Shown: positions 39,390 to 56,990 of the stretch, piece by piece | How the letters are laid out: each line of letters starts with the position of its first letter | Numbering within the stretch: the first letter of the stretch is position 1 | Origin: a virus | Virus record (IMG/VR): IMGVR_UViG_3300045988_114464 | Coordinates: 49,687-113,686 of that record | Reading direction: 5' to 3' (one strand) | DNA length: 64,000 nt | Made by a program: the position numbers and the translations under genes | Notes under the pieces: generated by a model | Seen by the model: the letters and a program-made list of their open reading frames with translations, nothing else | Told to the model about the DNA's origin: nothing | Database searches by the model: none

Positions 39390-39390
39390 T

Positions 39391-40253: not shown

Positions 40254-40774
40254 TCACTTCTTCTGAATTTCTTCAAAGACAATCTGCTTTGGTAACATCT
40301 TGTGGCACACATACGCACTACTGAAAGGTGGGTTAAGGCTTGGCTTTTGGTCTGCGTAGTCCTTGAAGTAAGCAACTCTGCGGTTAAGGTACATGATTTC
40401 AAACTCATTGTTCTTAAATATATCGAACCTTCGCTGAGATTCAAACAAGCCTACAACACCCACCAGCATTGCGAACGGCTTGCCAATTTCAAACAGTCGT
40501 TCCAACACTTCTGTCTTGACGCTATAAGGTGGATTGCTGATAATCATGTCACACTGTGGTATTGGCATTGTGAAAAAGTCCTGACCATTATCAATGTGCG
40601 TACAGATTACCTTGTTGCCCTGTGCTTTAAGCATTTTAACGAAGTGTGATTCTTCTGTATCAAAAGGACACCATACCGTCAGTTGGGGGGGGCATAAGCC
40701 AAGATAGGCTTAACGGCATAGGGCGGTGTGTAGAAGTTATCGTTGCCAGAGCCAGCTACTTTATCCATTTTCAT
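40254..40774 (-). CDS. N6-adenine DNA methyltransferase (NPPY), reading frame broken at a C8 tract
   Basis: The start MKMDKVAGSGNDNFYTPPYAVKPILAYAPP (ATG 40774, RBS aaggagag) is out of frame with the body QLTVWCPFD...IISNPPYS (ORF 40254-40634). C9 or C6 would restore the frame. Confidence 0.75.
40685..40692 (-). repeat. C8 homopolymer (coding strand) in the NPPY methyltransferase
   Basis: Direct count: G8 on the + strand. Confidence 0.95.
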
Positions 40775-40787
40775 GATTGTTCTCTCC

Positions 40788-41243
40788 TTACTTAATCTCA
40801 ATAATTTTTTCTGCATCGCTCATCGTCATATCATTGGAAACGCGTTTAACATAAAAGAAATACTTCTTTGCGCCATCCTTTACTTTGTAGACGATAAAGA
40901 TATAATTTTGTCCAAGAACAAATGGCTCATCGTCTGTGTATTGAATGGTTTGGCTAACAACTTGTTCGTCAATGATTTCAGCGTGAGCGTCTAACCATGC
41001 TGAATCAATTTCTTCTACACAACAAGCGGGATAAGAAAAATTTTCTGTACCATTATAATAAGTGGTATAGTTAACAAATTTACCGTTATTATCCTTCTTG
41101 GCTTCTACAATATGCCCCCAATCTCCATATTGAGGAAGGATACCGAGAATAAAATCAATACCGTCTACAGTGTCTACAAGTCTTTCGTCAAATTCTTTGG
41201 CGCTTTTCAGCGCTTCTTCCCAAGGCTTAATATAAACTTTCAT
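40788..41243 (-). CDS. hypothetical protein (tandem paralog 1)
   Basis: MKVYIKPWEEALKSAKE...GDWGHI...CCVEEI... is shared with the next gene. Confidence 0.55.
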   Translation of the reverse strand: MKVYIKPWEEALKSAKEFDERLVDTVDGIDFILGILPQYGDWGHIVEAKKDNNGKFVNYTTYYNGTENFSYPACCVEEIDSAWLDAHAEIIDEQVVSQTIQYTDDEPFVLGQNYIFIVYKVKDGAKKYFFYVKRVSNDMTMSDAEKIIEIK

Positions 41244-41255
41244 AGCGTCCTCTCC

Positions 41256-41714
41256 TTAGTTAATTTCTCTAAAATCTTCTACAGTTTCTTCGCAACCGTT
41301 ATACGAAATACAATAAACATAAAAGAAATAAGCGTGTCTTGCGTCCATAGCCTTGTAAATCGTGATGTGGTGGGTTTCGTAACTTTCAAAGTTATCGTCC
41401 CATGCATCTGTGGTGAATACTTCTTCGCTAAACTTACTTGCGTGCTCTTCAAGCCAATTTGGTGTGATTTCTTCTACGCAACAAGCATCATAACTAAAAC
41501 CTATATCTTTAGACCGAGAATGCACTACGGTATAAGAAGTGTATTCATCATCACTGTTTTTCGTAACCGTGCAAATATGTCCCCAATCGCCCATGCGTCG
41601 AGAAACGCCCAAAATTTCCGCACGGTCAGGAAAGAAGTTTACAAACCCTTCATGCTTCTTGGCTTCTTTCAGTGCTTCAACCCACGGTTTGATATATACT
41701 TTCATAGTTTCCAT
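41256..41714 (-). CDS. hypothetical protein (tandem paralog 2)
   Basis: RBS aaggagg before ATG 41714. METMKVYIKPWVEALKEAKK...GDWGHI...CCVEEI. Confidence 0.55.
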   Translation of the reverse strand: METMKVYIKPWVEALKEAKKHEGFVNFFPDRAEILGVSRRMGDWGHICTVTKNSDDEYTSYTVVHSRSKDIGFSYDACCVEEITPNWLEEHASKFSEEVFTTDAWDDNFESYETHHITIYKAMDARHAYFFYVYCISYNGCEETVEDFREIN

Positions 41715-41768
41715 AATAAAACCTCCTTGATTTGATACTATTGTACCATTCTCAAGGAGGTCTGTCAA
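41715..41768 (-). promoter_or_regulatory. composite terminator hairpin with nested promoter and SD-containing 3' arm
   Basis: On the - strand: TTGACA, 17 nt, TACAAT. Arms ACCTCCTTGA/TCAAGGAGGT bracket the -10, followed by TTTATT and the ATG. Confidence 0.6.
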
Positions 41769-41785
41769 GCATTTATTTTAAGTTT

Positions 41786-42133
41786 TTAGAGAGAATTATA
41801 GCCAGAATTTTGTTTAGTTAAATATTGAAGCCCTTCTGATAGCGCTTCAAACATCATCTCTGCGTCATCAGTTGTCCAATATTCATCACGAATTTTATAT
41901 TTAACAACACAATCTGCTCCATAATTTTTTAGAGCGTCTTTGAATTGCTTCGCTAATTCTTCGCCATATACCGCTGGTTCTCCCATAATGGTTTTCACGC
42001 CATCTTTAGGTACAGAAACATAGTATGTTCCAGATAGATAGTTGTTAGGTTCTTGCTGTATATAAAGTCCCATTATATTTGCTTTTATAGCAGTGGTGGC
42101 AAACTCTAAATCTTTTTGTTGCTTTTCGTTCAT
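41786..42133 (-). CDS. hypothetical protein
   Basis: 115-aa ORF. Confidence 0.5.
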   Translation of the reverse strand: MNEKQQKDLEFATTAIKANIMGLYIQQEPNNYLSGTYYVSVPKDGVKTIMGEPAVYGEELAKQFKDALKNYGADCVVKYKIRDEYWTTDDAEMMFEALSEGLQYLTKQNSGYNSL

Positions 42134-42136
42134 TGC

Positions 42137-44371
42137 TTAGTTCTCCTTCAGCATATCTTTCAGCCAAGTATCTCGTGTAGTTTCTTCTTGTACTTCTAAC
42201 GCATCTCTCAACACATCTACATCGCTAATAACAATTAACTTATCACGAGAACGTGTCATAGCTACATAGCATAAGTTGCGAGATAGTAGACGCTTATGTG
42301 CTTGGTCGGCAAGGAAAATTACCGCCTTTGCACTCGACCCTTGGCTCTTATGTGTAGAAATACAATAGCCCAAAATCAAGTTTCTAAGGTCAGCACCTTC
42401 ATATACACCGTAGCCATTCTCAAATTCAACAATAAGAGCATAACCCTTATCAGTTTCCATAACTTCGCGCACATAACCAATATCACCATTCATTACTTCG
42501 ATAGGGAAAGAAGAGCTAAAAGAACCTTCATCATTCAGCGCAACAGCGGTCATGCGATAATTGTTCTTGGTGTTTAGTACCTTATCGCCCCACTTAAACT
42601 GAATCTTACCACCCTTATTGTTATCTTCGTATTCAACAGGCGTATAGTCTCTATCATTGAAATGCGCTTGGATAGCACGATTGATTGCCACTGAGCCAGC
42701 TTCACCCTTGTTAAACGGCGAAAGAATCATAATATCGTCCTTAGTATATCCTTCATCGAGCAAATGCTGATATTCTGTCATCACTTGCTTAATAGGATTT
42801 GAAATCGGCTCAAATTCATAATCGTCATACTTTTCTGCTATATGGTCAATATTACCGTTACGAGTATCAGTTGCAATCGTGATTAGACCGCTTGTAGAAT
42901 AGCGAAAAATCTTGTTTAGACTTGCTACTGGTACAATTCCACTATTGATAACATCAACGATAAAATTGCCACATTGAATAGATGCTAACTGTGCAGGGTC
43001 GCATACAAATACAAGTTTGCATTTATAGCCGACCTTTTTGAGAAGTTGTGCCATAAGGTGTACGCTTACCATTGAACTCTCGTCTACAATAACGACACCA
43101 CGATACTGCATACACTGACCTTCTTGTTCATCCATGCTATGCTGTGCAAGAAAACGATGAATAGTAGAAGCCTTACGCCCTGTGCTATTAGCCAATACTT
43201 TACTTGCAATACCAGTAGGTGCTAATAACATATAGTCTACACACATATCTTCTAACATACGAACAAGCGCTTTGGTAGACGCTGACTTACCCGAACCACT
43301 ATAACCACGAAGGACGCAAATATTCTGCTCCCAAGTATTATAAAGCACTTGCATCTGCTCATCGGTACACTTAAAGCCGTCAACTTCTCTGAACTTTTCA
43401 AAGTCTGGCTCGTTCATAGTGTATTCTGTTTCAAAGATATTACCTTGTAGTAGTCTATCCTTAATATGTTTTGCAATCGTTTCTTCGGCTTCATAAGTAT
43501 CAATCAACGCCGAATAACCAGTAGTTTCATCGTGATGAATAAAACGGCAACCGTTTACTACTTCTGGAATGTACTCTTTGCACTCTGGAATCATTTCTTC
43601 TGCCATATAACCGAGAACTTCTGCTTCAATGCGCGTATCGCCTTCAAGTTCGTTCTCATGTAGAATATTAACACAGCCATATTCACAGCGAAGTTTGCTG
43701 TTTTTTAGGTCAGGATAGCGCTTCAACACCTCTCTATCGCTCTTAGCAAACGACCAGTTAATAACATCGTGATAAATACGGTAAGGATTTTCTTCAAAGT
43801 CTTGCTGAAGCAGTTCTGGACTTGCGTATTTGTCCGAAAGTTTCTGTACATCTTTGTCTTGTGTGATACCCAATTCAGCGCAAACGGGGAAGAAAAGGAT
43901 GGATTCAAGGTTCTTCTTAATTTTATCAATATACATTTCAACGCGAACCTTGCCTACGTTATAAATGTTATGATAATCAATATCTTCTTCTTCACCGCGC
44001 AACACCATCTGAACAAAGTGAGGATATGCTTCATGCACACGTTCGGCTTGAATATATTCCATCATCGTGCTAAGAATAGATATTTCTTTTTCTTCTTCGA
44101 CTACAATCTCATCTTTTTCCATCTTTAGACCCGGATAACCGACAAGAATATAACTTGCTGGACGTTTGGCGTTCTGATTAGGGCGAATAGTAATTTCAAC
44201 TTCATCGCCTTCCTTAAAGCCAAACAGATTGCTACCAGAGATAGAGAAGCCACCCCACTTATCAAGTTCCATATTATAGTTTCCAATGGGTTTACAGCCC
44301 AAAATACGGAACTCATCAAGATAATTGACGAATACTTGCTTTCTAATTTTGCATTTAACGTCTAATGCCAT
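42137..44371 (-). CDS. RecD-like SF1 DNA helicase
   Basis: Walker A GYSGSGKS, Walker B VVIVDESSM, FVCDPAQL, C-terminal STHKSQGS...YVAMTRSR. RBS ggagg before ATG 44371. Confidence 0.85.
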   Translation of the reverse strand: MALDVKCKIRKQVFVNYLDEFRILGCKPIGNYNMELDKWGGFSISGSNLFGFKEGDEVEITIRPNQNAKRPASYILVGYPGLKMEKDEIVVEEEKEISILSTMMEYIQAERVHEAYPHFVQMVLRGEEEDIDYHNIYNVGKVRVEMYIDKIKKNLESILFFPVCAELGITQDKDVQKLSDKYASPELLQQDFEENPYRIYHDVINWSFAKSDREVLKRYPDLKNSKLRCEYGCVNILHENELEGDTRIEAEVLGYMAEEMIPECKEYIPEVVNGCRFIHHDETTGYSALIDTYEAEETIAKHIKDRLLQGNIFETEYTMNEPDFEKFREVDGFKCTDEQMQVLYNTWEQNICVLRGYSGSGKSASTKALVRMLEDMCVDYMLLAPTGIASKVLANSTGRKASTIHRFLAQHSMDEQEGQCMQYRGVVIVDESSMVSVHLMAQLLKKVGYKCKLVFVCDPAQLASIQCGNFIVDVINSGIVPVASLNKIFRYSTSGLITIATDTRNGNIDHIAEKYDDYEFEPISNPIKQVMTEYQHLLDEGYTKDDIMILSPFNKGEAGSVAINRAIQAHFNDRDYTPVEYEDNNKGGKIQFKWGDKVLNTKNNYRMTAVALNDEGSFSSSFPIEVMNGDIGYVREVMETDKGYALIVEFENGYGVYEGADLRNLILGYCISTHKSQGSSAKAVIFLADQAHKRLLSRNLCYVAMTRSRDKLIVISDVDVLRDALEVQEETTRDTWLKDMLKEN

Positions 44372-44425
44372 AAATAAGACCTCCGTTCTTGCGATTATTG
44401 TACCATAGAACGAAGGTCTTGTCAA
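44372..44425 (-). promoter_or_regulatory. composite terminator hairpin with nested promoter and SD-containing 3' arm
   Basis: On the - strand: TTGACA, 17 nt, TACAAT. 13-nt arms AGACCTTCGTTCT/AGAACGGAGGTCT (one G.U pair), followed by TATTT and the ATG. Confidence 0.6.
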
Positions 44426-44440
44426 GCATTTTATTCGATT

Positions 44441-44626
44441 TTATTCTTCTTCTCGTCTAAATTGTTCAATCCAATCAATGTAATTCTTCCAACCACACCG
44501 AGGACAATAAACTACACGATAATCTATAAGAGAAAACCAGTTGTCTTTAACCTTCCAATCAATCGTATCTTCATCGACTTCAAAGTTTTTATGACAACAT
44601 TCGCAGTTTACCTTTAGAATAGCCAT
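44441..44626 (-). CDS. small zinc-ribbon protein
   Basis: CECCH...CPRCG pairs. Confidence 0.5.
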   Translation of the reverse strand: MAILKVNCECCHKNFEVDEDTIDWKVKDNWFSLIDYRVVYCPRCGWKNYIDWIEQFRREEE

Positions 44627-44628
44627 AA

Positions 44629-44952
44629 TTACACCTCTTGGTCTACAATCTCGATAATCTCTTGCAAAGTGTCTAAAGCAGTTTGAGATTGTCGTACTCT
44701 CCCCAGTCCAGAAATACGCTGAACAATTTCCTTAATATCCATAAGAGCACGCTGAGCCGATTCAAGGTTTGCTTCATAAGATTCAAGTTCATACTTGGTA
44801 GCGTCTAAATCGTCTTGAACGTTAATAGGCTCTATGCAATTCTTGAGTTCTCTAAGAAAATCGCCACCCATATATTGATGAATATAATAGTAGCAATCTT
44901 CAAGGTCTTGAATAATTGCTTGACCACCATTCTTAATTGGTGTTACTGTCAT
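44629..44952 (-). CDS. hypothetical protein
   Basis: RBS ggaggtg before ATG 44952. Confidence 0.5.
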   Translation of the reverse strand: MTVTPIKNGGQAIIQDLEDCYYYIHQYMGGDFLRELKNCIEPINVQDDLDATKYELESYEANLESAQRALMDIKEIVQRISGLGRVRQSQTALDTLQEIIEIVDQEV

Positions 44953-45137
44953 TGTTTCACCTCCGTTCTCCTGTTCCATGCTTCAATTACTTTTTCAACA
45001 GCACTGGTTTTATAGCATTCACTATCCACCAAAATTTTAGAAGAAGCGCGACATTTAGTACAAAGCACTCTTACGCCGTCATTTACAAACAGCCTTGCTT
45101 CTCCACCACAAAAAGGACAAGATTTAAGTTCAATCAT
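44949..45137 (-). CDS. Lar-like restriction alleviation protein
   Basis: LKSCPFCGGEA...VLCTKC...AWNRR fits the Lar family pattern. Confidence 0.5.
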   Translation of the reverse strand: MIELKSCPFCGGEARLFVNDGVRVLCTKCRASSKILVDSECYKTSAVEKVIEAWNRRTEVKQ

Positions 45138-45139
45138 TG

Positions 45140-45334
45140 TTAAATATATCCCCTATTCTTCTTTTTAGCTTCGATGTTTGCCATTACTTCTGATAATTCA
45201 AAAGCGTCTATGCAACAGTTCCAACTATCTGCACCAAACGAACGTAAAATACAGTTCTGGCAACATGATTGTTCTTCGCAGAATGTGCCAATGGTTTCAA
45301 CAGCTTCTAATAATTTTTTATTGCTGATTGCCAT
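45140..45334 (-). CDS. hypothetical protein
   Basis: 64-aa ORF. Confidence 0.45.
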   Translation of the reverse strand: MAISNKKLLEAVETIGTFCEEQSCCQNCILRSFGADSWNCCIDAFELSEVMANIEAKKKNRGYI

Positions 45335-45584
45335 TTTCTTTATCTTCCTTAATCGTTACACGAAGTTCAACTACTCGACCGTCTTTGAGTGTCCACTCCC
45401 ATCCACTTGATGATGCTTTAGAGCAACCAAAACCACCAAGTAGTTCCATTACCATATGGTCACGAACGGCTTGAATTGCTTCTTCAGTAACGTCTGACTT
45501 GTTACGCCACAAGGATTTGTTCTTTGGCTCAAGCGTTCCTGCATAAATACCGAAAGCACCACAGCCAACATGATATTCAGCCAT
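45318..45584 (-). CDS. hypothetical protein
   Basis: 88-aa ORF. Confidence 0.45.
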   Translation of the reverse strand: MAEYHVGCGAFGIYAGTLEPKNKSLWRNKSDVTEEAIQAVRDHMVMELLGGFGCSKASSSGWEWTLKDGRVVELRVTIKEDKENGNQQ

Positions 45585-46691: not shown

Positions 46692-46720
46692 ATTATATCA
46701 CATTTTTATCAAGAAGTCAA
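46692..46720 (-). promoter_or_regulatory. sigma-A type promoter for the HNH-like gene, followed by a two-hairpin leader
   Basis: On the - strand: TTGACT, 17 nt (ending TGa), TATAAT. 9-bp and 12-bp hairpins at 46653-46676 and 46618-46648. Confidence 0.55.
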
Positions 46721-49242
46721 TTATTTTTTTCTTGGTTTTCACCATATCTTTGAAATTGAATCTCAATTTCGCCATTTTTTCTAACTTCAGTAATTAAATT
46801 TATTGGATAAGGAAAGATAGAATTTTTATAGGTCTTAACAACAAAAGTATCATCTCTACGGTAGCCTGTTAAAATTAACAAACATCCTCTGCCAAACCAT
46901 GATTTATCTACAATTATTCTTTCTCCATTTTTTTCGACAGAAATTTGCGCTTTATACTTAGCAAATTCAAGTCCATTAAATTTTATTTGTACTACATTAT
47001 TATTGGTGTCCAATATAGTAATACTATGATGAGCGTCATTACGCGCTATTACTGTTCCCATAATTCGACTAAGCTGATACTGTCGCCATTCACGCTTGCC
47101 GTACTTTTTAGTAACAAACATTGGCTCAGTAGGCAACTTATCAAATGTAGTAACATTGTATCTATCAGCGTCAATGCAAGCTAATTCATGCTCATTAGAG
47201 TAATAGGACAGTGCTTCAAAACTCCAATGATTAACGTTCATGTTAGGCAACTTATCACGCATACGAGCCTTGATAGATTGTTCGTTATACATTTTTAGGA
47301 ACTCTGGCTGGTTAATATAAGCCTTTAGTTCTTCAGTGACGTTCTTGAATAGCTTCTCAAGCGACTTATCTACAACAAGCGTTCTGCCTTCCTCATCATA
47401 CCACCAATCTACATTTTCTTCAAGTTGACTACGGCACATTGAATCGAAGAAAACTAATGCTCGTTCGTCAAGCCAATAGATTTTCTTTGACTTGAATTTA
47501 GGATGTGTACCATAGAGGAATTGCTTTGAACACATGTATTTTTTGAAAGCAAGTGGCATGGTAAGGGTGTTGGGTAGCTTACAGCCAATGCGTTGTAATT
47601 CAGCTAAATTAGCAGTGGTAAGTGTTTGTTTGCGAGGGGTAGAAAGGGCGAAATACGCTTGCATGACACGCATACGGTCAGGACAGAACTCATCAAAACA
47701 GCCAGCCTTAATTAGTTGGATAAACTTAGATGGTGTGATAAGTGTACCTTGGTATGAGTTGCGCGTATAGAAGTCGCGGAAAGAAGTGTAGGGGCGGTTT
47801 GCGATAATTTGTTGAGCAATTTCTGCGTTAATGGATGAAATACCGCCTAAACCGAAAAGAATGGTGTTATCTTTTTCTCTTGGCGTGAAGTCCATATCTG
47901 AACCATTAGCAGAAGGAGCACTAACATAGATATTAGATTGACGCATTTTATAGATGGCTTTAGCAATCTCTGAATAATCTGTACTGCCCTTGCGTTCGAC
48001 CTCTGATTCAACACCAGATGCTTCGGTGGATAGACACGCGCAATTCCAATATACACGAGGATAGAAATAATTAAGATTAAGTTCTTGTAGAGCAATAATT
48101 GAATAAGAATAGGAATGTAATTGGGAGAAGGAATATCCCATACTTGCCGCAAATACAACATTCCAAATATAATCAAGGAATACTTCTCGCGTACCAATTT
48201 TACGTCCATATTCAAAAAATTGTTGCTTTGCTTCTTCTTGTAGCTTTGCTGACTTCTTTGCGATGGATTTACGAAGTTTGTTGCTTTCTTTCAAAGTATA
48301 ACCAGCTACACGCTTATCCATAGACAAACGCATAACTTTTTCCTGTGAATCTGCAAGACCATAAGCGTCTGAAAGATATTCCCACAGAACTGCGCGTTCT
48401 TCGTCATTTAGTCCAAAGCTAATAGTGTCTTGTACCCATGCTTCGTGACTGTTTTTATAACGAATATAACGGTCAATAGGTGTTTCGTCTGCATTATCTG
48501 GTTGTAATCGCAATAGGCTATTAGCCGCAGACAAATCCATTACTGAGCGAGGTTTAGTTGCAGACAACGCTTTAGCCGAAATCGGAGTATCAAATTGAAA
48601 GACAGAATAAATAGATGGTAGAATATCCCACATTTTAGTATCATTGTATTCCAATACATCAGGATGTAGCCACTTGTAATATGTTGCTTTAAGTGAGCCT
48701 TCCCATGTAATTTTGCCGTTTGCTAACAGATAGTCCATTGTTTTATGAATCTTATCTGCCGCAGAAACCGATAGCATATCCATCTTAACCAGACTTGCGG
48801 CTTCGCTATCCCATAGGTCATAACAGGTGCTTAATGCTCCATCAGGCGAACGAATAGCAGAAACGTAATTAACATAAGGCTCGTTACAGAGCGTTACTCC
48901 TGCGGCGTGACGACCTCGATTAGTAATCAATCCTTCAAGACCAAGAGCGGATTCTTTAAGTCCTTCATATTTAGCCATTTCATTGACCATTTCAGTAATA
49001 GGTCGTTCTCCAAGCAAACATTCCTTTAGACTTGCTACTTTACCACGGTTGACAGGAACAAGAGATTTAAGATAACCAGCGGTATCATTTCCAATACCCA
49101 GTCCTTTACAAGCGCGTTCAATAGCTGTTTTTGCAGAAATCTTAGAAAAAGTAGTTACATTAAGAACCTTATCTTCTCCAAAGAACTCTTTCATTTTATT
49201 GACGATTGCTTTCTTTTTGGATGCTTCAGAATCGTTATCAAT
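46717..49242 (-). CDS. dnaE: DNA polymerase III alpha-type (C-family) polymerase, exon 2
   Basis: Begins IDNDSEA, completing the PD-IDND catalytic Asp motif. Long polymerase body. No RBS of its own. Confidence 0.85.
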   Translation of the reverse strand: MDNDSEASKKKAIVNKMKEFFGEDKVLNVTTFSKISAKTAIERACKGLGIGNDTAGYLKSLVPVNRGKVASLKECLLGERPITEMVNEMAKYEGLKESALGLEGLITNRGRHAAGVTLCNEPYVNYVSAIRSPDGALSTCYDLWDSEAASLVKMDMLSVSAADKIHKTMDYLLANGKITWEGSLKATYYKWLHPDVLEYNDTKMWDILPSIYSVFQFDTPISAKALSATKPRSVMDLSAANSLLRLQPDNADETPIDRYIRYKNSHEAWVQDTISFGLNDEERAVLWEYLSDAYGLADSQEKVMRLSMDKRVAGYTLKESNKLRKSIAKKSAKLQEEAKQQFFEYGRKIGTREVFLDYIWNVVFAASMGYSFSQLHSYSYSIIALQELNLNYFYPRVYWNCACLSTEASGVESEVERKGSTDYSEIAKAIYKMRQSNIYVSAPSANGSDMDFTPREKDNTILFGLGGISSINAEIAQQIIANRPYTSFRDFYTRNSYQGTLITPSKFIQLIKAGCFDEFCPDRMRVMQAYFALSTPRKQTLTTANLAELQRIGCKLPNTLTMPLAFKKYMCSKQFLYGTHPKFKSKKIYWLDERALVFFDSMCRSQLEENVDWWYDEEGRTLVVDKSLEKLFKNVTEELKAYINQPEFLKMYNEQSIKARMRDKLPNMNVNHWSFEALSYYSNEHELACIDADRYNVTTFDKLPTEPMFVTKKYGKREWRQYQLSRIMGTVIARNDAHHSITILDTNNNVVQIKFNGLEFAKYKAQISVEKNGERIIVDKSWFGRGCLLILTGYRRDDTFVVKTYKNSIFPYPINLITEVRKNGEIEIQFQRYGENQEKNN

Positions 49243-50111
49243 CAATTATACCGTTGGTTATTTATTCCCAATACTTTAACACTGATTTAACAGTCGGTTT
49301 AGACTATATCTTCATCTCTATTTAAGAGAGGATGGCGCTGGATAAGGGGAGTTTCACCCCTTACCGCTTAGTCGTTGCAGATTTCTTTATCCATTTGTTT
49401 AGTCCAAACATTAAGAGTATAATTCTTTGTTCTCCGATATTTAACTAAACTCGTATATGAAATACAAGGGTTGTATTTCTGAAGAAAATCGCGTAGTTCT
49501 GTGCCACCTACTAATATAGGCGATACTACTTCTCCGTCTTTTAATACTTGATAATGTTTATAATTGCGTAAAGCGTTTATTCCACTATCTGTATAACTTT
49601 GATGGATATTTTCTTCTTGAGTAATCCATTTAAGATTAAGTATAATGATTATTATAAATATTGGCATCTTTGTGTCCCACAACAGCACCTTCAAACCAAC
49701 CGTTTATAAAATGCAAAGCAACCAATCTATGAATTAAACAATGTTTATATATTCCGTCATTTCGCTTCAGAGTAACACAAAGATAAGCACTTGTTGAACC
49801 ACAATAAGGGGACAATTTTCTCCATTTGTTTCCCATGCGTTTTGACATAACAGTTCCGTTATCTCCGATAGCGTAGCCATCATAATTTTTAATAGCTACA
49901 AATCGTTCACCGTTAATCGTAAAAAGTGTTTCCATCAGTTTCACCTCCTTTGTATTAAAATGTTTGGATAAAGACTTTCCACAGTATTGCCATGTTGCCG
50001 ATTCTAAACAACAAGGTTTCCACTGTTAGCACCTTGTAAAGGCACACCCTGTATGTACAGGTTCACCATCTTGTTTTCTATGCGTCACCGCATAGCCAGA
50101 CTATGTTGTTA
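49243..50111 (-). mobile_element. group I intron in the DNA polymerase gene
   Basis: P1 is CCAGAU paired with GUCUGG (11-16 nt into the intron), with a U.G pair. The 3' core is GAAGATATAGTC. Omega-G at 49243. Splicing restores ELPD-IDND. Confidence 0.85.
49368..49935 (-). pseudogene. intron-encoded HNH homing endonuclease, frameshifted
   Basis: RBS aaggagg before ATG 49935. ...VVGHKDANIYNNHY ends at a stop, and the motif continues as LNLKWITQEEN in the +1 frame (ORFs 49636-49944 and 49368-49694). Confidence 0.7.
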
Positions 50112-51563
50112 ATCTGGAAGTTCCACACCTCTCATGTGATTTAAGTGTCGCCAAGACGGCATATAATCACCAAGGGGAAGAGGGTCAATTTGAGTAATTG
50201 AAAGCAAATAGCAAGTTTCAAAGCCAGCCGCAGAACCACGGGCGGGCATTGACAAACTACCAGCGTCCCAAATCAGTTCGATAATTTCTGTCATCGTACT
50301 GTAATAAGACGGCATGGAAGTATGAAGCTGGTCACTGATAATTTTAAGTTCTTTCCATTCTTCGTTTAAGCGTTGAATGTAAGGTTCTACTTCCTTTCCA
50401 CGATTTAGCACCTTATCAATCAAACCTTGTTCAGCTTGATAGAAAAAATATCGTTCATGGATAGGGCGGTCAGCACTTGCATAATAACCAAAGTATTCAT
50501 ATTTATCATAATATTCTTTGAATTTATGTCGAGTATGAAAAATCTTTGGTAGTTTGTCTAATGGAATTTGAGGGATAATAGGGTCATGTAGAATGTTATA
50601 TTCTTGTACTCTATCAGCAATCTCATCGCTCCAAGCAAACATCTTATCAATTTGCTCATTAGTAAAGTCAATAAGTAGATATTCACGCAATTCTTGTTCG
50701 CTCATGCAATATGCCGTTGCATAAAATGAGTCTACTTCTCTATCGCCTTCTTGCGAAAGCAAATAGGTCTTGTGAATAACCGCATCTTCTTTTCTAAGAT
50801 AATGTGCGTCAGTTGTGGCGATAATAGGAATATTTGTCTTTTCATGCAGTTTCCACAACAAACGATTAACCTTGCTTTGGTCTGTATCGGCTTCACTTGC
50901 TGGCTGTACTTCAAGATAAAAATTACCTTTGCCAAAGATATACTGAAAATAATTGGCTTCTTCTACCGCTTGTTGAAAAGAACCTTGTAAAAGAAGTTTG
51001 TCAATTACCGAGCCTAAACAAGCTGAACTTGCTATTACATGACCACGATTACCACCAATCACTTCTTTAAGGTCGGTATAATACGTTGGTCTACGATAAA
51101 TTTTACCTTGTTTCCATGCTCTTATCCATGCTCTTGTAGACAATTCACGCAGTTGCTTATGACCTTCAGTATCAAGAGCAAGAAGAATAAAGTGATAATA
51201 CGGTGTAGAGTTTGGCGTTTCGCGGTTAAGCAAATCATCTTCTTCTCTAACAGCGTAAATCTCATTACCTAAACCAAGAGTAAATGGTCTATCTTTCTCC
51301 ATAGACTGCCATTTCTTCAAGGCTTGAATATGGCTACTGATACCTTCGTGTTCAGTAATACTGATACCACGCAAGCCAATATCATAAGCGTATTGAATCA
51401 AGTCTGGCAATCTATTTACTACATCAGGGAATCCAAGCATTGCATTGCTGTATTCCGAGTGCGTGTGATTATTGTACACTTCTAACCCCTCCTTAAAACA
51501 AAAATGGGAATAGCTTTTAACTACTCCCATTCTATCACATATCTGTTCACTTGTCAAGCTCAA
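50112..51563 (-). CDS. dnaE: DNA polymerase III alpha-type polymerase, exon 1 (PHP domain)
   Basis: PHP motifs NHTHSEYS, ITEHEG, ATTDAHY. Ends ...GVELPD at the 5' splice site. Confidence 0.85.
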
Positions 51564-51750: not shown

Positions 51751-51755
51751 TTTAA

Positions 51756-52151
51756 TTACTCCTTGTCAAGAAGTTCTAACGTCATTTTTCTAAGTTTTCT
51801 GAGTTCGTCACCGCAAGCGTTCAACTGACAAAAAGCACTGTCAATTTTACGAGCAACTTTTTCATACTGCTCCAATATTGCACCCTTGTCTGGATTCAAT
51901 ACATTCTCTCCAATCTTATCAAAAGTTTTGTTGAGATTATCAATTTGTCCCACCCACGCATAATCGGTATACGCATAAATGGTTTCAGAATCACTTTTAT
52001 TTGTAACATTAACAGAATCAAAATCAAGAGGTTGTAAATCAAGCCGAATTTCTCCGAGGGTTCTATAAGTGTAATAAAAATTTATAATTCTATATCTAAC
52101 GCCTTCTTTGGTAATGGCAATATCACCAACGTGAATATCATTAAAGTTCAT
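51756..52151 (-). CDS. hypothetical protein with small beta-barrel-like N-terminus
   Basis: 131 aa; ATGA overlap with the upstream gene. Confidence 0.5.
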   Translation of the reverse strand: MNFNDIHVGDIAITKEGVRYRIINFYYTYRTLGEIRLDLQPLDFDSVNVTNKSDSETIYAYTDYAWVGQIDNLNKTFDKIGENVLNPDKGAILEQYEKVARKIDSAFCQLNACGDELRKLRKMTLELLDKE

Positions 52152-52483
52152 AGCATATTAACCTCCATTTCATCAAGTCTATATCTAAGTGCTCTAACTT
52201 CCTTAGTCAACTTAGCAATCTGTTCTATCAAAGCCTTAAAATCGCTCATACTAACTGTTTGCAAATTCTCGCCACCAATAGATTCAAAATATTTATACAT
52301 ATCTTTTTCAAGACCATGATATTCAATGTACTTTTTGGTAAAATCACCAAAATTACCAGTATCATCTGGCTTAATGCGAAGGTCATACCACACTTCGCCG
52401 TTATGACTCCTCATTTCAACCTTGGTAATAACACCAGTTGTACCTTGTAGGGTTTTAATTCCCCAGCCTTCACGAATATTCAT
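52148..52483 (-). CDS. hypothetical protein
   Basis: RBS ggaggg before ATG 52483; ATGA overlap with the upstream stop. Confidence 0.5.
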   Translation of the reverse strand: MNIREGWGIKTLQGTTGVITKVEMRSHNGEVWYDLRIKPDDTGNFGDFTKKYIEYHGLEKDMYKYFESIGGENLQTVSMSDFKALIEQIAKLTKEVRALRYRLDEMEVNML

Positions 52484-52752
52484 TGAATACACCCTCCACA
52501 ACATCCACGCGGTACATTCTCATTCACGACCTTGAGAATTTCATCCCTGTACTGCTCAAGGCTTTCGGGCAAGCCACAAAGTCGCCAATCGCCAGTTTCA
52601 ATGTACTCATTCCGTTCTTCATCAAATCCACACTTACCGCCAGACCGCAAGCAGGGTGCTTCAAGAGTAAATTCTTCCCCATTCACTCTAATAATCAGTG
52701 TACCACTGCACAAGTTCGGAAACTTACCATTATACGATACAAATTCTACCAC
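52480..52752 (-). CDS. Cys-rich small protein
   Basis: 90 aa ending in CCGGC. Confidence 0.5.
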   Translation of the reverse strand: MVEFVSYNGKFPNLCSGTLIIRVNGEEFTLEAPCLRSGGKCGFDEERNEYIETGDWRLCGLPESLEQYRDEILKVVNENVPRGCCGGCIQ

Positions 52753-52754
52753 GA

Positions 52755-53624
52755 TTATACCTCCAACAGCTTATGTGTTAACGTCCAATTATAACGTCTT
52801 ACTTCAGCACACTTCTTGTTATATTCTTCTCGCGCTTTCTTGCTACGAGCATAATTGTCTGGATATTTAGGTCTGTCCATCAGCATTTTCTTATTACAGC
52901 ACTCGCTATCTACATATACCTTGCTGTCACGAACCCACAGTTCCTTATCAGCAATGTTATCTACCTCTTTGAAAGCGTCCAGATACTTCTTTCTATCTAT
53001 TGCACTAAAGCCTTTGCGCTTCAAATAATAGCACGCTTCGCACACAGAATATTCTTCATCGGACAGTGCCAACCTTTGTTCAGCACAAAACTGCCTATAA
53101 GCAATATACTTTTCACACGCTTCATAGGTAGAGAACATCTCGTTCTCATGGCATTTAATGCTATCAGCAAGGCTCTTGCCAAAGAATCCAGTATCATGTG
53201 CTTGAAACTTCTCAGTAAGGATATAACCATTACCGTCCTTTTTAACGTCATGGTCAACATAGAATACATTCTTATAAGAAATTGGCACAAGCCAACCTTT
53301 AACAAGATACTGATATACAGCTTCTTCGTCACGCCAATAAATGACAATTTTCATGCTCTCAGGATAAGCCCAATGCTCTTCACGCTCGTAAGGACAATGC
53401 GACTTATAGGTAAATTCCTTTGCACTGATTTTACAAGATACCTGTCCAATTTCATACCAAGGCTTGCCATTGATATAGGTTTCAATGTTAGGCACGATAC
53501 GCTTTAGACCTTCGTCAGTTAAATAAACGCACATTGGGTGGACATTGCCGCAAACATAGTTAAAATCCATTGCGTTATCACAAATATTAGGGATATAATA
53601 GATGTTCTTTTTTACGATTTCCAT
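52755..53624 (-). CDS. hypothetical protein
   Basis: RBS aaggagag before ATG 53624; about 289 aa, Cys-rich. Confidence 0.55.
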   Translation of the reverse strand: MEIVKKNIYYIPNICDNAMDFNYVCGNVHPMCVYLTDEGLKRIVPNIETYINGKPWYEIGQVSCKISAKEFTYKSHCPYEREEHWAYPESMKIVIYWRDEEAVYQYLVKGWLVPISYKNVFYVDHDVKKDGNGYILTEKFQAHDTGFFGKSLADSIKCHENEMFSTYEACEKYIAYRQFCAEQRLALSDEEYSVCEACYYLKRKGFSAIDRKKYLDAFKEVDNIADKELWVRDSKVYVDSECCNKKMLMDRPKYPDNYARSKKAREEYNKKCAEVRRYNWTLTHKLLEV

Positions 53625-53648
53625 AGTTTTCACTCTCCTTATGTGACT

Positions 53649-53677
53649 ATTGTATCACATCTCTAAAGAACCGTCAA
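53649..53677 (-). promoter_or_regulatory. sigma-A type promoter
   Basis: On the - strand: TTGACG, 17 nt (ending TGa), TACAAT. Confidence 0.55.
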
Positions 53678-53864
53678 CATAAATTTCTAAAATGTTAATA
53701 TCAAAAGCGATAGATTTTACACCATACTGACAATAATTGCATCTACCTATTTCTTTTTGAAACTCATATACAAGCCCTGAAAATACACATTTATTGTTTT
53801 CTTCAAAAACTTCAATATAGGTATCACCAGCGATTTTTCTTATCAATTCATATAAGGTGAACAT
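53655..53864 (-). CDS. hypothetical protein (tandem paralog b)
   Basis: ATG 53864 is preceded by TGAAGAAAGGATTGgttggt, the same initiation region as the neighbouring gene. Confidence 0.5.
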   Translation of the reverse strand: MFTLYELIRKIAGDTYIEVFEENNKCVFSGLVYEFQKEIGRCNYCQYGVKSIAFDINILEIYVDGSLEM

Positions 53865-53887
53865 ACCAACCAATCCTTTCTTCAAAA

Positions 53888-54091
53888 TTATTCTTCCACA
53901 ACAATTTCAAAATAATTCTTTTCTCTGTTAAAATTAAGTGAGCAGACTTCTTCGCCTTTAACATATTCCTTACCAATCCAGTAAAATTCTTCAACATTAC
54001 CAATATATAAAGGCACGTTTGGCTTCTCTCTGTTAATAATTACAATATTTGCAAACGCAGGTAATACAAATATCAACTCTAACAATTTCAC
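53888..54091 (-). CDS. hypothetical protein (tandem paralog a)
   Basis: GTG 54091 is preceded by TGAAGAAAGGATTGattgaa. The longer ORF in the track overlaps the deaminase gene. Confidence 0.45.
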   Translation of the reverse strand: MKLLELIFVLPAFANIVIINREKPNVPLYIGNVEEFYWIGKEYVKGEEVCSLNFNREKNYFEIVVEE

Positions 54092-54092
54092 T

Positions 54093-54503
54093 TCAATCAA
54101 TCCTTTCTTCAGCCGTGCCAAAGTCAGTAGTATACACCACTCTTTTAACACCCAAACTCTTAATCATCTTCATGCATCCAGCACACGGTCTTGCCATGCC
54201 ATTCTCGCCATCACATTTTCTCTTACGAGCAATGTATACCGTTACTTTAGACCACTCAATTTCTTCGTTAAGTAGTGGGGCGAGTGCGTGTATCTCTGCG
54301 TGAAGATAATGCGGTTTATCATCTTCTGGGAAACGCTCTCTATTATATTTCTTCTGCAAGGGATGGGTCTTGCAAGTATTGAACGCTGTGTTAAGCACTG
54401 TGTTCTTCTGCGCTACTACACAGCCCATATGGTATCTGCCATAGTCACTGCAATCAGCAATAGACAAGGCATGAGCCAGCATTTTTTTATCGTTCTTGTT
54501 CAT
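54093..54503 (-). CDS. deoxycytidylate (dCMP) deaminase
   Basis: Zinc motifs HAEIHAL and PCAGCMKMI. Confidence 0.85.
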   Translation of the reverse strand: MNKNDKKMLAHALSIADCSDYGRYHMGCVVAQKNTVLNTAFNTCKTHPLQKKYNRERFPEDDKPHYLHAEIHALAPLLNEEIEWSKVTVYIARKRKCDGENGMARPCAGCMKMIKSLGVKRVVYTTDFGTAEERID

Positions 54504-54688
54504 AAAAATAACCACTTAATTATACTACACCAATAAAAAATCCAGAGAATGATGATAGATAAAGAAGCAAAGATAATAATGCTCCAACTTCTGTAATGAT
54601 AATATTTCCATTCATCAATAATTAACCACATTGCATTTACAGTCATAAAAATCATCGCAAATAAAGGGAAAGCAAAAAGAACAAACAT
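54500..54688 (-). CDS. small membrane protein
   Basis: 62 aa with two hydrophobic segments; RBS gaggtga. Confidence 0.5.
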   Translation of the reverse strand: MFVLFAFPLFAMIFMTVNAMWLIIDEWKYYHYRSWSIIIFASLSIIILWIFYWCSIIKWLFL

Positions 54689-54707
54689 TTATAATTTCAC
54701 CTCACAA

Positions 54708-54923
54708 TTAGCACACAAAAAGGATAACCCATGCAACCATGCACAGCAGAACAATATACCATTCAATCCAGTTCCCCCAGAACAGTACAGGTGTTTGATG
54801 CTTTCTAAGCCAATACTTCATATCTTTCCATACATTGTATGAACTCAGACAGAAAGCAAGCAAAAGAATTGGAACAACAGCCCAACGAATAAACTCTACA
54901 AAAACCTTATCATTACCCATCAT
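54708..54923 (-). CDS. small membrane protein
   Basis: RBS gggag before ATG 54923; two hydrophobic segments. Confidence 0.5.
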   Translation of the reverse strand: MMGNDKVFVEFIRWAVVPILLLAFCLSSYNVWKDMKYWLRKHQTPVLFWGNWIEWYIVLLCMVAWVILFVC

Positions 54924-54925
54924 TA

Positions 54926-55270
54926 TCACTCCCAATCAATCAGCACTTCGATATATCTCATTCTACACTGGTCATTCGGAACATCACCAGACACGACCCT
55001 ATATCCCTTTTGCTCAAGCGCTCTCATAAGTCGCTGTTCAGCCAATACAGAAATGAGGTTAGCATTGTACACGATACGAGGATTGACCGCTTGTGCATCG
55101 TTAATGCGCTTCATCATTTCAATGTGCATAGTGCTCTTGAGATAAGAGTAACCGCTTACGTCCTTGAAGCCCTGCTTACCCTTAGATAGATTGTTAAAGA
55201 TACCGATATTCTTACGAATCATCTTCATATATTCTTCCTTAGTCGGAAGTACGTTATAACTGTTTGCCAT
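54926..55270 (-). CDS. hypothetical protein
   Basis: 114-aa ORF; RBS ggaggaa. Confidence 0.5.
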   Translation of the reverse strand: MANSYNVLPTKEEYMKMIRKNIGIFNNLSKGKQGFKDVSGYSYLKSTMHIEMMKRINDAQAVNPRIVYNANLISVLAEQRLMRALEQKGYRVVSGDVPNDQCRMRYIEVLIDWE

Positions 55271-55272
55271 GT

Positions 55273-55491
55273 TTATTCCTCCGCCTTTACAATAAAACTT
55301 TTCTCAACAAGCCATGTATGATTACCCGAAGTGCCGCTATCTTCGCCCCAATTTACGAGAACCATTTTTTTATCCACCGTTGTCACTACCTCACCAATTA
55401 CTGTACAAGCGGGATAAAACTCAGGCAAAGCAATGTGTGCTACATTGCTCTTCATACGCACTTTATCACCAGCACAAAACCGAGTTTCCAT
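55273..55491 (-). CDS. small beta-barrel (SH3-like) domain protein
   Basis: GDKVRMK...YP..G.IGEVV....K.VLVNWG pattern, repeated twice in 59575-60753. Confidence 0.5.
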   Translation of the reverse strand: METRFCAGDKVRMKSNVAHIALPEFYPACTVIGEVVTTVDKKMVLVNWGEDSGTSGNHTWLVEKSFIVKAEE

Positions 55492-55503
55492 ATTTATTCT
55501 CCT

Positions 55504-55827
55504 TTATTTACGTTCAACATGATAGTTCATACCTGCTCTAAAAGATTCAATCAACAAATCCTTAATGATTTCTTGTTCTTTTGCGCTGAAATTCTTTAAG
55601 GCATTATCGTTAATGTTCTTTTCAATATAGTCCCATGACTCTGCTTTAGGTAGAACATAAGGCTTTAATTCATCTTCATCACACCAATGATTAAACTTTT
55701 CTCCTGTGACGAAATAATAATATCCACGACCATCACAGCTTACTTGGGTAACAATCCCCAGCGGAACTTTTGAGCGTTCTGATACTTCCTTAGTTACTTT
55801 GTCGCCAATCTTAAACTTTGCTTTCAT
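55504..55827 (-). CDS. hypothetical protein
   Basis: 107-aa ORF; RBS aaggagg. Confidence 0.5.
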   Translation of the reverse strand: MKAKFKIGDKVTKEVSERSKVPLGIVTQVSCDGRGYYYFVTGEKFNHWCDEDELKPYVLPKAESWDYIEKNINDNALKNFSAKEQEIIKDLLIESFRAGMNYHVERK

Positions 55828-55848
55828 AAAAACAACCTCCTTATTAAA

Positions 55849-56026
55849 TTAACCAAAAAGATAGTACACAGTAACAAGAGAAGTTACAAAATACATAATT
55901 AAGACGCATCCAAAAATAAATGCGTATTCTGAAGTAATAGCCAAATATAATAGCACTGCAAAAATAATAGTCCACAGCGAAATACCTAACGAAACCATAA
56001 TAATTGTACCTACCATAAAAAACAAC
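55849..56026 (-). CDS. small membrane protein
   Basis: RBS aaggagg before ATG 56026; almost entirely hydrophobic. Confidence 0.5.
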
Positions 56027-56084
56027 CTCCTTTGTTTATGTATCAATGATACCACAAAGGAGGTTGTATGTCAAGGGATTTTAT
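56027..56084 (-). promoter_or_regulatory. composite terminator hairpin with nested promoter and SD-containing 3' arm
   Basis: On the - strand: TTGACA, 17 nt, TATCAT. 12-nt arms AACCTCCTTTGT/ACAAAGGAGGTT, followed by gTTTTTT and the ATG. Confidence 0.6.
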
Positions 56085-56093
56085 GAAATTTTA

Positions 56094-56543
56094 TTAAAAG
56101 CCATATATAGAAATATCATATTCTACAGTAGCACTCCATTGATAATTACTACCCACTTGATGTGAAGAAAAATAACAAGGATATTGAGTACCTCCCACAG
56201 AAGAACTTACATTGTTATATTGCCAATATGAATTTCTCCTATAAGCAAATGCGCTACCTACCATTGTTGAACCACTTCCAGAAGTCGATAGTAATATACC
56301 ATCGTTTACTCCATAACCTGTTACTTGATTTCCCAACGAAGTATATAAAGATGATAAAGTGCCGTTTACATAAATATTAAATTTTATCAATAGCAAAGAA
56401 TATTCATCATCTACTGAAAAAGAATAAATATTGCAATCTGTTCTATTATATTCTTTGTTTATTGTCCCCGTTTTATGGTCGAGTAACGACAATGAAACAG
56501 AAGATGTTTCTGCTGAACCTTCCTTCATCACCTTGGCGTTCAT
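56094..56543 (-). CDS. hypothetical beta-rich protein (paralog 2 of the MxAKVMKE pair)
   Basis: ATG 56543 gives MNAKVMKEG...; preceded by the G-rich gtggggtgg. Confidence 0.55.
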   Translation of the reverse strand: MNAKVMKEGSAETSSVSLSLLDHKTGTINKEYNRTDCNIYSFSVDDEYSLLLIKFNIYVNGTLSSLYTSLGNQVTGYGVNDGILLSTSGSGSTMVGSAFAYRRNSYWQYNNVSSSVGGTQYPCYFSSHQVGSNYQWSATVEYDISIYGF

Positions 56544-56565
56544 GCTACCACCCCACTTTCGGAGT

Positions 56566-56877
56566 TTAGCCGAACGCAGTAAAATAAACCATTGTAGAGT
56601 ATTCGTGACCAATGTTGAACCGTAATGTATTTTCGTCCCAAGACATTTGAAATAGAATTATGTCGTGGTCTTCTAAGCCTTCTAAATTGTACACCTCGGT
56701 TTGACCATTGACAGCAATTCCGTATTTGTCCTGTCCGAATTTGACAGTAATAAAATATGGGTCGAATGAAAATGTTACTGTATACATTCGTGAATAGTGA
56801 ACCGATACCGATTGTACTTCGATTCGACAACTGTTGTTTTTCGAAGAAAACATTTCTTTCATTACTTTTGCATCCAT
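56566..56877 (-). CDS. hypothetical protein (paralog 1 of the MxAKVMKE pair)
   Basis: MDAKVMKEMF...; the ATG lies 8 nt after the G8 tract. Confidence 0.55.
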   Translation of the reverse strand: MDAKVMKEMFSSKNNSCRIEVQSVSVHYSRMYTVTFSFDPYFITVKFGQDKYGIAVNGQTEVYNLEGLEDHDIILFQMSWDENTLRFNIGHEYSTMVYFTAFG

Positions 56878-56885
56878 TACTTACG

Positions 56886-56893
56886 CCCCCCCC
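56886..56893 (-). repeat. G8 homopolymer 8 nt upstream of ATG 56877
   Basis: Direct count: C8 on the + strand. Confidence 0.95.
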
Positions 56894-56945
56894 AACTGAA
56901 CGAGAAGTTTGTAAGTTGTGAACATCAGGAGGATTGCTTACGCGC

Positions 56946-56990
56946 TCAACGTAAGCCCCCCCCCAGTGAAACAATGGTTTGGTTAATCAT
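56946..56990 (-). CDS. 14-codon leader ORF crossing the G9 tract
   Basis: RBS aaaggagg 9 nt before ATG 56990. Encodes MINQTIVSLGGGLR followed by a stop, as sequenced. Confidence 0.4.
   Translation of the reverse strand: MINQTIVSLGGGLR
56956..56964 (-). repeat. G9 homopolymer inside the leader ORF
   Basis: Direct count: C9 on the + strand. Confidence 0.95.

Follow-up and report, generated by a model that had tools for sequence, protein, structure and literature searches.

Here we describe a set of guanine homopolymers (poly-G tracts) in a stretch of viral DNA of 64,000 nucleotides (nt), hereafter the window, which corresponds to positions 49,687 to 113,686 of the IMG/VR virus record IMGVR_UViG_3300045988_114464. 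Five tracts, named sites A to E, are found there: A, C and D lie inside DNA methyltransferase genes, and E and B lie between a NAGPA gene and an orphan gene of 103 amino acids (aa), preceded by a short leader open reading frame (ORF). An earlier reading made from the letters alone (the sequence-only reading) had given the positions and flanks of these five tracts, and both hold as written. Its statement on orientation holds as well: at site A the run is antisense, so that the coding strand of its minus-strand methyltransferase gene has C8, and at the remaining four sites the coding strand has the G. The sites are as follows.

Site A, 40685..40692, plus strand: G8, flanked by CCGTCAGTT on the left and CATAAGCCAAG on the right; C8 on the coding strand of the methyltransferase A gene.
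Site B, 56886..56893, minus strand: G8, flanked by CGTTCAGTT on the left and CGTAAGTAATG on the right; it ends 8 nt 5′ of the ATG of gene 1, at the Shine-Dalgarno (SD) position.
Site C, 36879..36886, minus strand: G8 in methyltransferase C, flanked by CCGTGAGTT on the left and CGTTGCTTCT on the right.
Site D, 39311..39318, minus strand: G8 in a D12-class (Dam-like) methyltransferase, flanked by CCTTGAACTT on the left and CAGACATTCG on the right.
Site E, 56956..56964, minus strand: G9 within the leader ORF.

A census of G8 runs gave 6 matches in the window, against 0.13 expected from shuffles, and the lengths of the G/C runs have a bimodal distribution, a single G6 being separated from four G8 and one G9 by the absence of any run of 7. 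Runs of at least G7 are absent from the structural region of 10 relatives. The sole G6 run of the window (2747-2752, plus strand, taaGGGGGGtaa) lies in a structural gene; it is G6 in 10 of 10 relatives and constitutes a stable control.

The series extends past the end of the window. Contig L037, which is identical to the window where the two overlap and adds 8.9 kilobases (kb) beyond it (position x of L037 is window 72943 - x), carries five further tracts, I to M, within 2.3 kb; relatives contribute sites H, N, O, P and Q, as well as a site F in a fourth methyltransferase gene. Tract lengths were compared between consensus assemblies (ENA, Logan and IMG/VR). Among near-identical genomes the run measures 8, 8, 8, 9 and 9 at site A; 8, 8, 8, 7, 8, 8 and 9 at B (G7 in L033, G9 in L148); 9, 9, 9, 9, 10, 10 and 8 at E; 8, 9 and 7 at F; 9, 8, 6, 9 and 9 at I; 7, 7, 8 and 8 at J; 8, 8, 9, 8, 8 and 8 at K; and 8, 8, 8, 9, 8 and 10 at L. 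L049 and L050 have G8 at site A, and two 95%-identical relatives, L001 and L002, have G9 there, the ON length; site D is G8 in six of seven assemblies and G7 in the metagenome contig L145. Altogether, length varies at 10 of 11 sites, by 1-4 bases, with 3-7 assemblies per site: A, B, E, F and I to M vary, only C is constant, and D is nearly so. A poly-G artefact of two-colour sequencing chemistry was rejected for these tracts, the same ones recurring in independent ENA, Logan and IMG/VR assemblies; the G14/C-run at the extreme end of contig L015 is probably such an artefact.

These are three of the traits expected of a contingency locus, where phase variation comes from slipped-strand mispairing, namely an over-long run, a reading frame toggled by a change of one unit, and length polymorphism between near-identical genomes. 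The three methyltransferase genes of the window that carry a tract are listed here.

Methyltransferase C gene, 36234..36945, minus strand: phrog_757, out of frame as assembled.
D12 methyltransferase gene, 38675..39446, minus strand: PF02086 match, with ATG1 at 39446 and ATG2 at 39389.
Methyltransferase A gene, 40254..40774, minus strand: EcoRI-methylase-like, phrog_799, out of frame as assembled.

Tracts C, D and A sit 59-82 nt into these genes, and a change of one base restores the frame in all three (G7 for C, G7 for D, C9 for A). The D12 gene has more than one productive state: with G7 it is in frame from ATG2, with G9 from ATG1, and G8 is off, the third frame being closed by a TGA. In methyltransferase A the tract occupies a variable linker, which has the conserved motif K-Y on one side and WCPFD on the other. 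A fourth methyltransferase, of the N6_N4 type, carries tract F in relatives and is ON in one of them (C8) and OFF in another (C9).

Several features of these genes deserve mention on their own. The N-terminal segment of the D12 gene is duplicated (window 39389-39446, minus strand; MRYLGGKSRISKQISEV... then MQYMGGKSRISTQIAQV...), which gives two ATGs in different frames, and the SD of the second start is located inside the first copy. At the same linker, D12 homologs of other phages carry (GA)n in place of poly-G in L006, L009 and L010, and two poly-G tracts in L014, L016 and L019. The F methyltransferase is full length in L001; in the window an HNH endonuclease gene (39577-40218) replaces most of it, so that only its last ~27 codons (ending in NRNFIGMELDENYFEIAKERIDKATKMR and a stop) are kept (window 39480-40218, minus strand, compared with L001 9250-9990). 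Upstream of the methyltransferase cluster, a 62-aa ORF of L049 (2107-2295; window equivalent ~44.9-45.1 kb) has a Lar-type restriction-alleviation domain (PF14354), in keeping with an anti-restriction role of the region.

Most of the other tracts are placed in leader ORFs ahead of small genes, either at the 56.9-kb locus or in a tandem array at the end of the window, whose parts are given below.

Leader ORF of the 56.9-kb locus, 56946..56990, minus strand: MINQTIVSLGGGLR followed by a stop, with its ATG at 56990 and the SD AAAGGAGG upstream.
Gene 1, 56566..56877, minus strand: 103 aa, MDAKVMKEM..., an orphan, first gene of the E/B cassette.
Gene 2, 56094..56543, minus strand: 149 aa, MNAKVMKEG..., second gene of the E/B cassette.
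In-window end of the tandem small-gene array, 63227..64000, minus strand: a 149-aa member (63227-63676) and most of a 106-aa member.
Start of the 106-aa member and tract M (G8), minus strand, beyond the window, from L037: ATG at the equivalent of 64016, tract at the equivalent of 64025-64032.
Tracts L, K, J and I, from L037: equivalents of 64.5, 65.0, 65.6 and 66.3 kb.

At the 56.9-kb locus, with E at G8 the leader ORF continues to tract B, and with G9 or G10 it meets a stop 63-71 nt before gene 1; in turn, the right flank of B holds TAA in two frames, adjoining or overlapping the ATG of gene 1. The pairs of lengths (E, B) encountered across strains are (9,8), (9,7), (10,8) and (8,9). The last one, E at G8 with B at G9, is the predicted ON pair; it is present in L148, where a called ORF of 37 aa ends on the ATG of gene 1.

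Each of tracts I to M lies in a short ORF with a strong SD and precedes a gene of the tandem family, of 55-149 aa, with an N-terminus of the form M[DN]G[IK][IV] or M[DN]AKVMKE. Where a leader has a single tract (three genomes, spacers of 39-89 nt), its ORF runs as far as the ATG of the following gene in exactly one length class and ends in overlap with it (TAATG, TGATG or ATGA), at -2 or +1 of that ATG; in the other two classes it ends 22-81 nt upstream. An upstream stop overlapping or abutting the downstream start, one mark of translational coupling, is present in these leaders. Eleven such leaders were listed, and the 7 distinct ones entered a shuffle test in which a stop/start overlap arose in 18-46% of shuffled spacers per leader, for a product over the 7 of ~2e-4. 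Tracts B, M and O, which end 8 nt before the ATG, behave otherwise: the ORF ends at the ATG in two length classes, and in the third it runs past it out of frame. Strains are not alike in their consensus states, J being on and I, K and L off in the window strain, and I and K on and J off in L051.

Promoter-like sites in the array show no excess over the shuffled expectation, promoter and terminator scans being alike in this, and because of it the array is probably one transcript; the notion that the tracts act as promoter-spacer elements was dropped, as neither scan gave an excess. What these leaders suggest is a polycistronic array in which each gene would be switched on its own through tract-dependent translational coupling.

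RNA folding adds a further level. Two elements of the E leader are placed as follows.

Hairpin GCTTACG(T)-loop-(G)CGTAAGC, 56936..56956, minus strand: directly after tract E, the right flank CTTACG of E being one arm.
CCTCC, anti-SD-like, 56928..56932, minus strand: predicted to pair with a G tract in the minimum free energy (MFE) fold, z = -3.0.

In paralog N the stem reads CTTACA...TGTAAG, with both sides changed and the pairing kept. The right flank of B, CGTAAGT, is predicted to pair with an upstream ACTTACA, and the downstream SD falls within a predicted hairpin for I, J, K and B (z = -2.1 to -3.0). On these models, some of the leader flank sequence, namely the hairpin arms after E and B, would have a role in the RNA.

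Some observations on the leaders and on the small genes stand apart from the tracts. An octamer, TTGAGCAA, of which TTGAGCG is found in the window at 56943-56949, occurs in nearly every leader spacer (L037 7327-7335, 7427-7434, 7866-7873 and 7966-7973 among others), and its reverse complement TTGCTCAA lies just 5′ of several leader SDs; it could be a long-range pairing element or a protein-binding site. The bodies of genes 1 and 2 (window 56094-56877, minus strand) are unrelated to those of the ~95%-identical L033 (7006-7815), the two sharing the leader, the first 9 codons and a 44-nt junction (56526-56569), and judged by this pattern the locus looks like a cassette-exchange hotspot. A homology search with gene 1 returned only 5 close homologs, and the AlphaFold model has a predicted local distance difference test (pLDDT) score of 49.6. 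One gene 1 homolog, P0005, differs at residues 11-18 (FFNKQQLS vs SSKNNSCR; window 56820-56850, minus strand), a difference that looks like a compensated frameshift pair between a T run and an A run. In L032 (relative 3300045988_122291), a TnpB-like ORF (MQKGIKFRVYPNKTQKNLINRIFGG..., 6920-7200) adjoins the NAGPA gene at the place that the E/B leader has in the window. Pfam and PHROG searches with nine small array proteins gave nothing significant.

The flanks of the tracts resemble each other, and this likeness had been put at about 20 of 22 positions for A and B. The excess similarity is real and the figure too high: A and B agree at 11 of the 12 nearest positions (TCAGTT-G8-C[A/G]TAAG), at 14 of 22 without gaps and at ~14 of 16 with a 1-nt gap. 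In a null made by drawing 5 flank sets from the G3-G6 runs of the window and taking the best of 10 pairs, P(≥11/12) is 6e-4 and P(≥14/22) is 6e-3. The local alignment of A and B scores 35, compared with a mean of 19 (standard deviation 2.7) and a maximum of 32 over 300 trials of a null that keeps the tract and shuffles the flanks and that was built on leader I, not B. The left flank CGTNAGTT, which the sequence-only reading extended to C as a third site (A, CCGTCAGTT; C, CCGTGAGTT), is indeed shared, and its CGT is unrelated to the tract: in C, TTC CGT encodes a Phe-Arg conserved in tract-free homologs, and the relatives of A read CTGT there. Because homologs read K/E-L-G-H-E-A-Y-S-C-D at the position of site C, its left flank is largely ancestral coding sequence.

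A shorter pattern is more widespread. All 10 tracts of at least G7 in the window and the 8.9 kb beyond have A[CG]TT or ACT on the left and C on the right, and the tracts of close relatives also fit A-[C/G]-T-[T/G]-Gn-C, with the sole exception of F, whose run is followed by A. Of 628 control runs of G3-G6, 6 (0.96%) have a counterpart of the looser consensus A-[C/G]-T-[T/G]-G7-9-C, T precedes 52% and C follows 22%. Protein coding had been thought a poor explanation of the likeness, and rightly so, since the reading frame of the shared sequence changes from leader to leader, and in methyltransferase A this sequence is antisense. We rejected a protein-level cause, Leu-Gly-Gly or, from the opposite strand, Pro-Pro-Gln, on the grounds that the core occurs in three leader frames and that the linkers of methyltransferases A and D are not conserved in their families.

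Of the origins that the sequence-only reading left side by side, the common one is supported. The likeness among most sites comes from descent, since most sites are paralogous leaders. Furthermore, patches bounded by the tract can be recognized: in the 12 nt left of tract L, 9 positions differ between strains and match leader P of L052, and both adjoining sides are identical. To compare the flanks in methyltransferases with those of 18 leaders, we used the 628 short runs as controls; those of A, C and D each resemble one leader subtype beyond the core, and F gives no significant match. Site A reaches a score of 13, attained by 0 of 628 controls, with leader I as best partner; aligned with leader I (CCGTCA-CT-G8-CATACGCCAAG), its CCGTCAGTT-G8-CATAAGCCAAG has a local score of 39 (null maximum 32), the match covering 28 columns, against 20 for leader B. 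Sites C and D both score 9, a value reached by 10 of 628 controls, C with leader J (right flank CGTT(G)CTTCT) and D with leader M (TGA(G)ACTT-Gn-CAGA). At the linker of methyltransferase A, about 70 of 80 homologs have K-Y, and this lineage has A-Y or V-Y, as would be expected if a patch had come in from a leader-like donor.

Considered jointly, these data lead us to a reading that we regard as fairly probable, in which the tracts would be length-variable on/off switches, placed in methyltransferase genes and in short leader ORFs, and the likeness of their flanks would be a by-product of history, of copying between switch modules, and not a recognition site for a protein. In methyltransferases A, C and D, and in F of relatives, a one-base change close to the 5′ end of the gene would set the frame. 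In the leader ORFs, one length class would let ribosomes run to a stop overlapping the ATG of the next gene, the length of the tract governing in this way whether ribosomes reach, open and re-initiate at a start whose SD a hairpin would otherwise hold; at the 56.9-kb locus two such tracts would act one after the other, E within the leader and B at the position of the SD. The tracts themselves, their frames, the overlaps of stop and start, the differences in length and the excess likeness of the flanks are observed directly; we infer the rates of the switching and the coupling. The paralogous leader modules would have kept exchanging short patches bounded by the tract, and the methyltransferase tracts appear to share sequence ancestry with them. 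As for the mechanism and direction of the copying, the likely route would be a short templated event anchored on the G:C run, in which the orientation of the G strand is kept whatever that of the gene.

A bolder extension, tentative and with a minor share of our confidence, would treat the G:C run with ~10-25 nt of flank as a small copyable module, so that template switching or short-patch conversion moves flanks and seeds new hypermutable tracts in unrelated genes, in either orientation. If so, this lineage would spread phase variability through its own genome and keep an array of individually switchable, translationally coupled small genes.

Several points weigh against the reading of switches with copied flanks. 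The tract lengths come from consensus assemblies only. Methyltransferases A, C and D are all off as assembled, and likewise in two further assemblies of the same strain; this uniform state, odd for free switching, may reflect selection for off. The likeness of C and D to leaders is modest (~P = 0.016 each), site F has no significant match among the 18 leader flanks, and part of the match of A to leader I could be coincidence, its right flank partly encoding a conserved I-L-x-Y. T(-1) and C(+1) are invariant in the lineage apart from F, as functional constraint would also make them. In the leaders, the SD of L is not sequestered in the MFE fold, and the RNA structures are single-sequence predictions with only moderate z-scores.

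A different account would see in the flanks a recognition motif, A-S-T-T...C or the longer CGTNAGTT...CRTAAG, needed by a phage or host factor that promotes slippage, nicks, or recombines at specific sites. The invariance of T(-1) and C(+1) over >20 non-allelic tracts and all alleles of the lineage, F excepted, speaks in its favor, as do the fact that the pattern follows the G strand and not the gene strand, and the biased flanks of a second clade; these two positions may in any case affect slippage. Nevertheless, in 2.9 million IMG/VR viral contigs the long motif, CAGTT-G7+-(0-3 nt)-CRTAAG, is found only at A and B homologs, plus one chance hit, and what recurs is the looser consensus, whose 5-nt core is carried within one lineage by related modules. 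The outer positions differ between alleles (changes at -5, -8, +2 and +6, with CGTAAA for A in L001 and TTTAGTT for B in L146/L147), in other phage lineages the homologs of methyltransferase A have independent tracts at the same linker with unrelated flanks, and the several flank subtypes, with pairwise similarities of 10-28 nt, look like descent and not like one consensus site. Moreover, A and B are inverted repeats, and relatives are collinear across the 16 kb between them, on which ground an A-B inversion was also rejected; among the called genes of L037, L049, L050 and L146 (window ~30 kb to the end and beyond), precomputed Pfam matches include no resolvase or integrase. The DNA-level requirement proposed by the sequence-only reading is consequently unsupported, and we consider it improbable. 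Convergence under an RNA-level constraint, the flanks being hairpin arms and anti-SD/SD pairings that work the leader switch, is also unlikely as a general cause: CTTACG of E and CGTAAGT of B are indeed arms of predicted hairpins, and paralog N preserves the E-type stem by a two-sided change (CTTACA/TGTAAG), but the idea fails for site A, antisense in a coding region, and for the methyltransferase sites generally, and the core left flank A-S-T-T stands in three frames and is not consistently paired in the folds.

Chance and local sequence bias, with no biological meaning, could be invoked on the grounds that T precedes 52% of short G runs, that the left flank of C is ancestral coding sequence, that the identities are short and that the motif was defined partly post hoc; against a P of ~6e-4 for A-B corrected for 10 pairs, a score of A that 0 of 628 controls reach, and 10 of 10 tracts fitting a pattern present in 1% of controls, this seems quite improbable. 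The weakest candidate in our estimation, very improbable, is that the tracts are recoding sites, at which ribosomal frameshifting or slippage of the RNA polymerase acts on a fixed G8, and not switches in the DNA. In its favor, transcriptional slippage sets in at about the length of the RNA:DNA hybrid, to which runs of 8-9 come close; in addition, 6 of 7 assemblies have G8 at D, and three have it at A, C and D alike. The fixed slippery length among relatives that characterizes programmed recoding is nonetheless not found, lengths differing in the DNA at nearly every site; a +1 shift would be needed by A and a -1 shift by C and D, and no conserved stimulatory element was seen.

An unrelated, GC-richer phage clade (L011-L025, 50-58% G+C) has a flank bias of its own, AC-Gn-CTT. 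Up to ten tracts of G7-G13 surround its homolog of the D12 methyltransferase in the space of a few kb, and their lengths differ between near-identical contigs. In the flanks of this 50%-GC phage clade, C precedes the run in 83% (34% in the background), AC in 45% (9%), and CTT follows in 24% (6%).

Among phages, hypermutable poly-G contingency loci are on record for T2/T4 (Gomez, Barrick and Waters, 2025, PMC12633550) and for the Fletchervirus phages of Campylobacter (Sorensen et al., 2021, Cell Rep 35:109214, cited in PMC12823448). As far as the available parts of these reports go, the tracts described here share with both systems, in which the progeny are mixed, homopolymers in phage genes that slip in length and toggle the frame; shared flanks are not mentioned in the available part of PMC12633550. 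Unlike those cases, in which the frameshifts as reported there fall within genes, most tracts here are in upstream leader ORFs with predicted stop/start coupling, four are in DNA methyltransferase genes, and the tracts share flanks.

In bacteria, the phase-variable Mod/Hsd methyltransferases of Haemophilus, Neisseria, Helicobacter and Moraxella constitute phasevarions, in which, as here, the 5′ part of the methyltransferase ORF contains a simple repeat that turns the enzyme on and off. Unlike them, the present genes are phage-borne and no restriction partner is in view, so their likely role would be to protect the DNA of the phage, not to control a regulon. The D12 gene departs from phasevarions in its duplicated N-terminus, its two starts and its two in-frame length classes out of three. 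It recalls the lic loci of Haemophilus influenzae, whose tetranucleotide repeats are preceded by alternative ATGs in different frames that make more than one repeat class productive; unlike in lic, the second start of methyltransferase D arises from a duplicated N-terminal coding segment. In turn, coupling by overlapping stop and start codons and hairpins that sequester an SD are known from trp operon junctions, the MS2 coat-replicase pair and erm leader peptides. Junctions of the ATGA, TGATG or TAATG type and a strong SD of the upstream ORF are common to these and to the present leaders, in which a hairpin containing the downstream SD is predicted for I, J, K and B. The arrival of ribosomes at the junction, which in those systems depends on a constant flow, a metabolite or an antibiotic, would here be set by a heritable homopolymer length.

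Contingency loci in phages have been described only recently. To these, the present lineage would add four switchable DNA methyltransferases, probably a bet-hedge between restriction that cuts unmethylated DNA and defences that cut methylated DNA, and the separate switching of each gene of a polycistronic array by a repeat placed in a coupled leader ORF. A non-exhaustive search of the literature did not find a repeat in a leader with coupling, a switchable array of small genes or related flanks described. Related switch tracts that exchange flanks within one genome would bear on the question of how hypermutable sites arise. From the point of view of annotation, frameshifted methyltransferases and leader ORFs of 14-38 codons should not be taken as pseudogenes or noise.

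The window has a G+C content of ~38%, with genes on the plus strand to ~28 kb and on the minus strand beyond, and it encodes a tape measure protein of 2022 aa, tail proteins, a RecJ-like nuclease, a helicase, a wall hydrolase with NAGPA and SLH domains, and a split DNA polymerase III alpha. Its structural proteins match SPbeta Yom/Yon Pfam families, its polymerase is nearest to those of Enterocloster bolteae phages of ~100 kb (45% amino-acid identity) and then to that of SPbeta, and near-identical contigs of 113.6-113.7 kb come from human-gut metagenomes; on these grounds it is one part of an SPbeta-like phage, roughly 113 kb long, whose host is a gut Firmicute. A host among Clostridia or Firmicutes is what the SLH domain and the closest polymerase relatives, in Enterocloster phages and SPbeta, point to. 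A host scan of genome contigs gave two metagenome-assembled genome (MAG) bins only, a metagenome scan with site D two loci only, and a megablast of both tract regions against 50,697 GenBank phages no match.

Other genes of the window appear to be interrupted too. DNA polymerase III alpha lies in two ORFs (46717-49245 and 50109-51563, minus strand), ~860 nt apart; in L148 it is one gene of 1309 aa with an HNH/NUMOD4 ORF before it, and the comparison suggests a mobile insertion in the window strain. The tail-tube (YomU-like) gene (2646-5918, plus strand) is apparently interrupted by a DUF7487/DUF559 endonuclease ORF (3902-4819), and in some relatives it is uninterrupted, with 360 aa.

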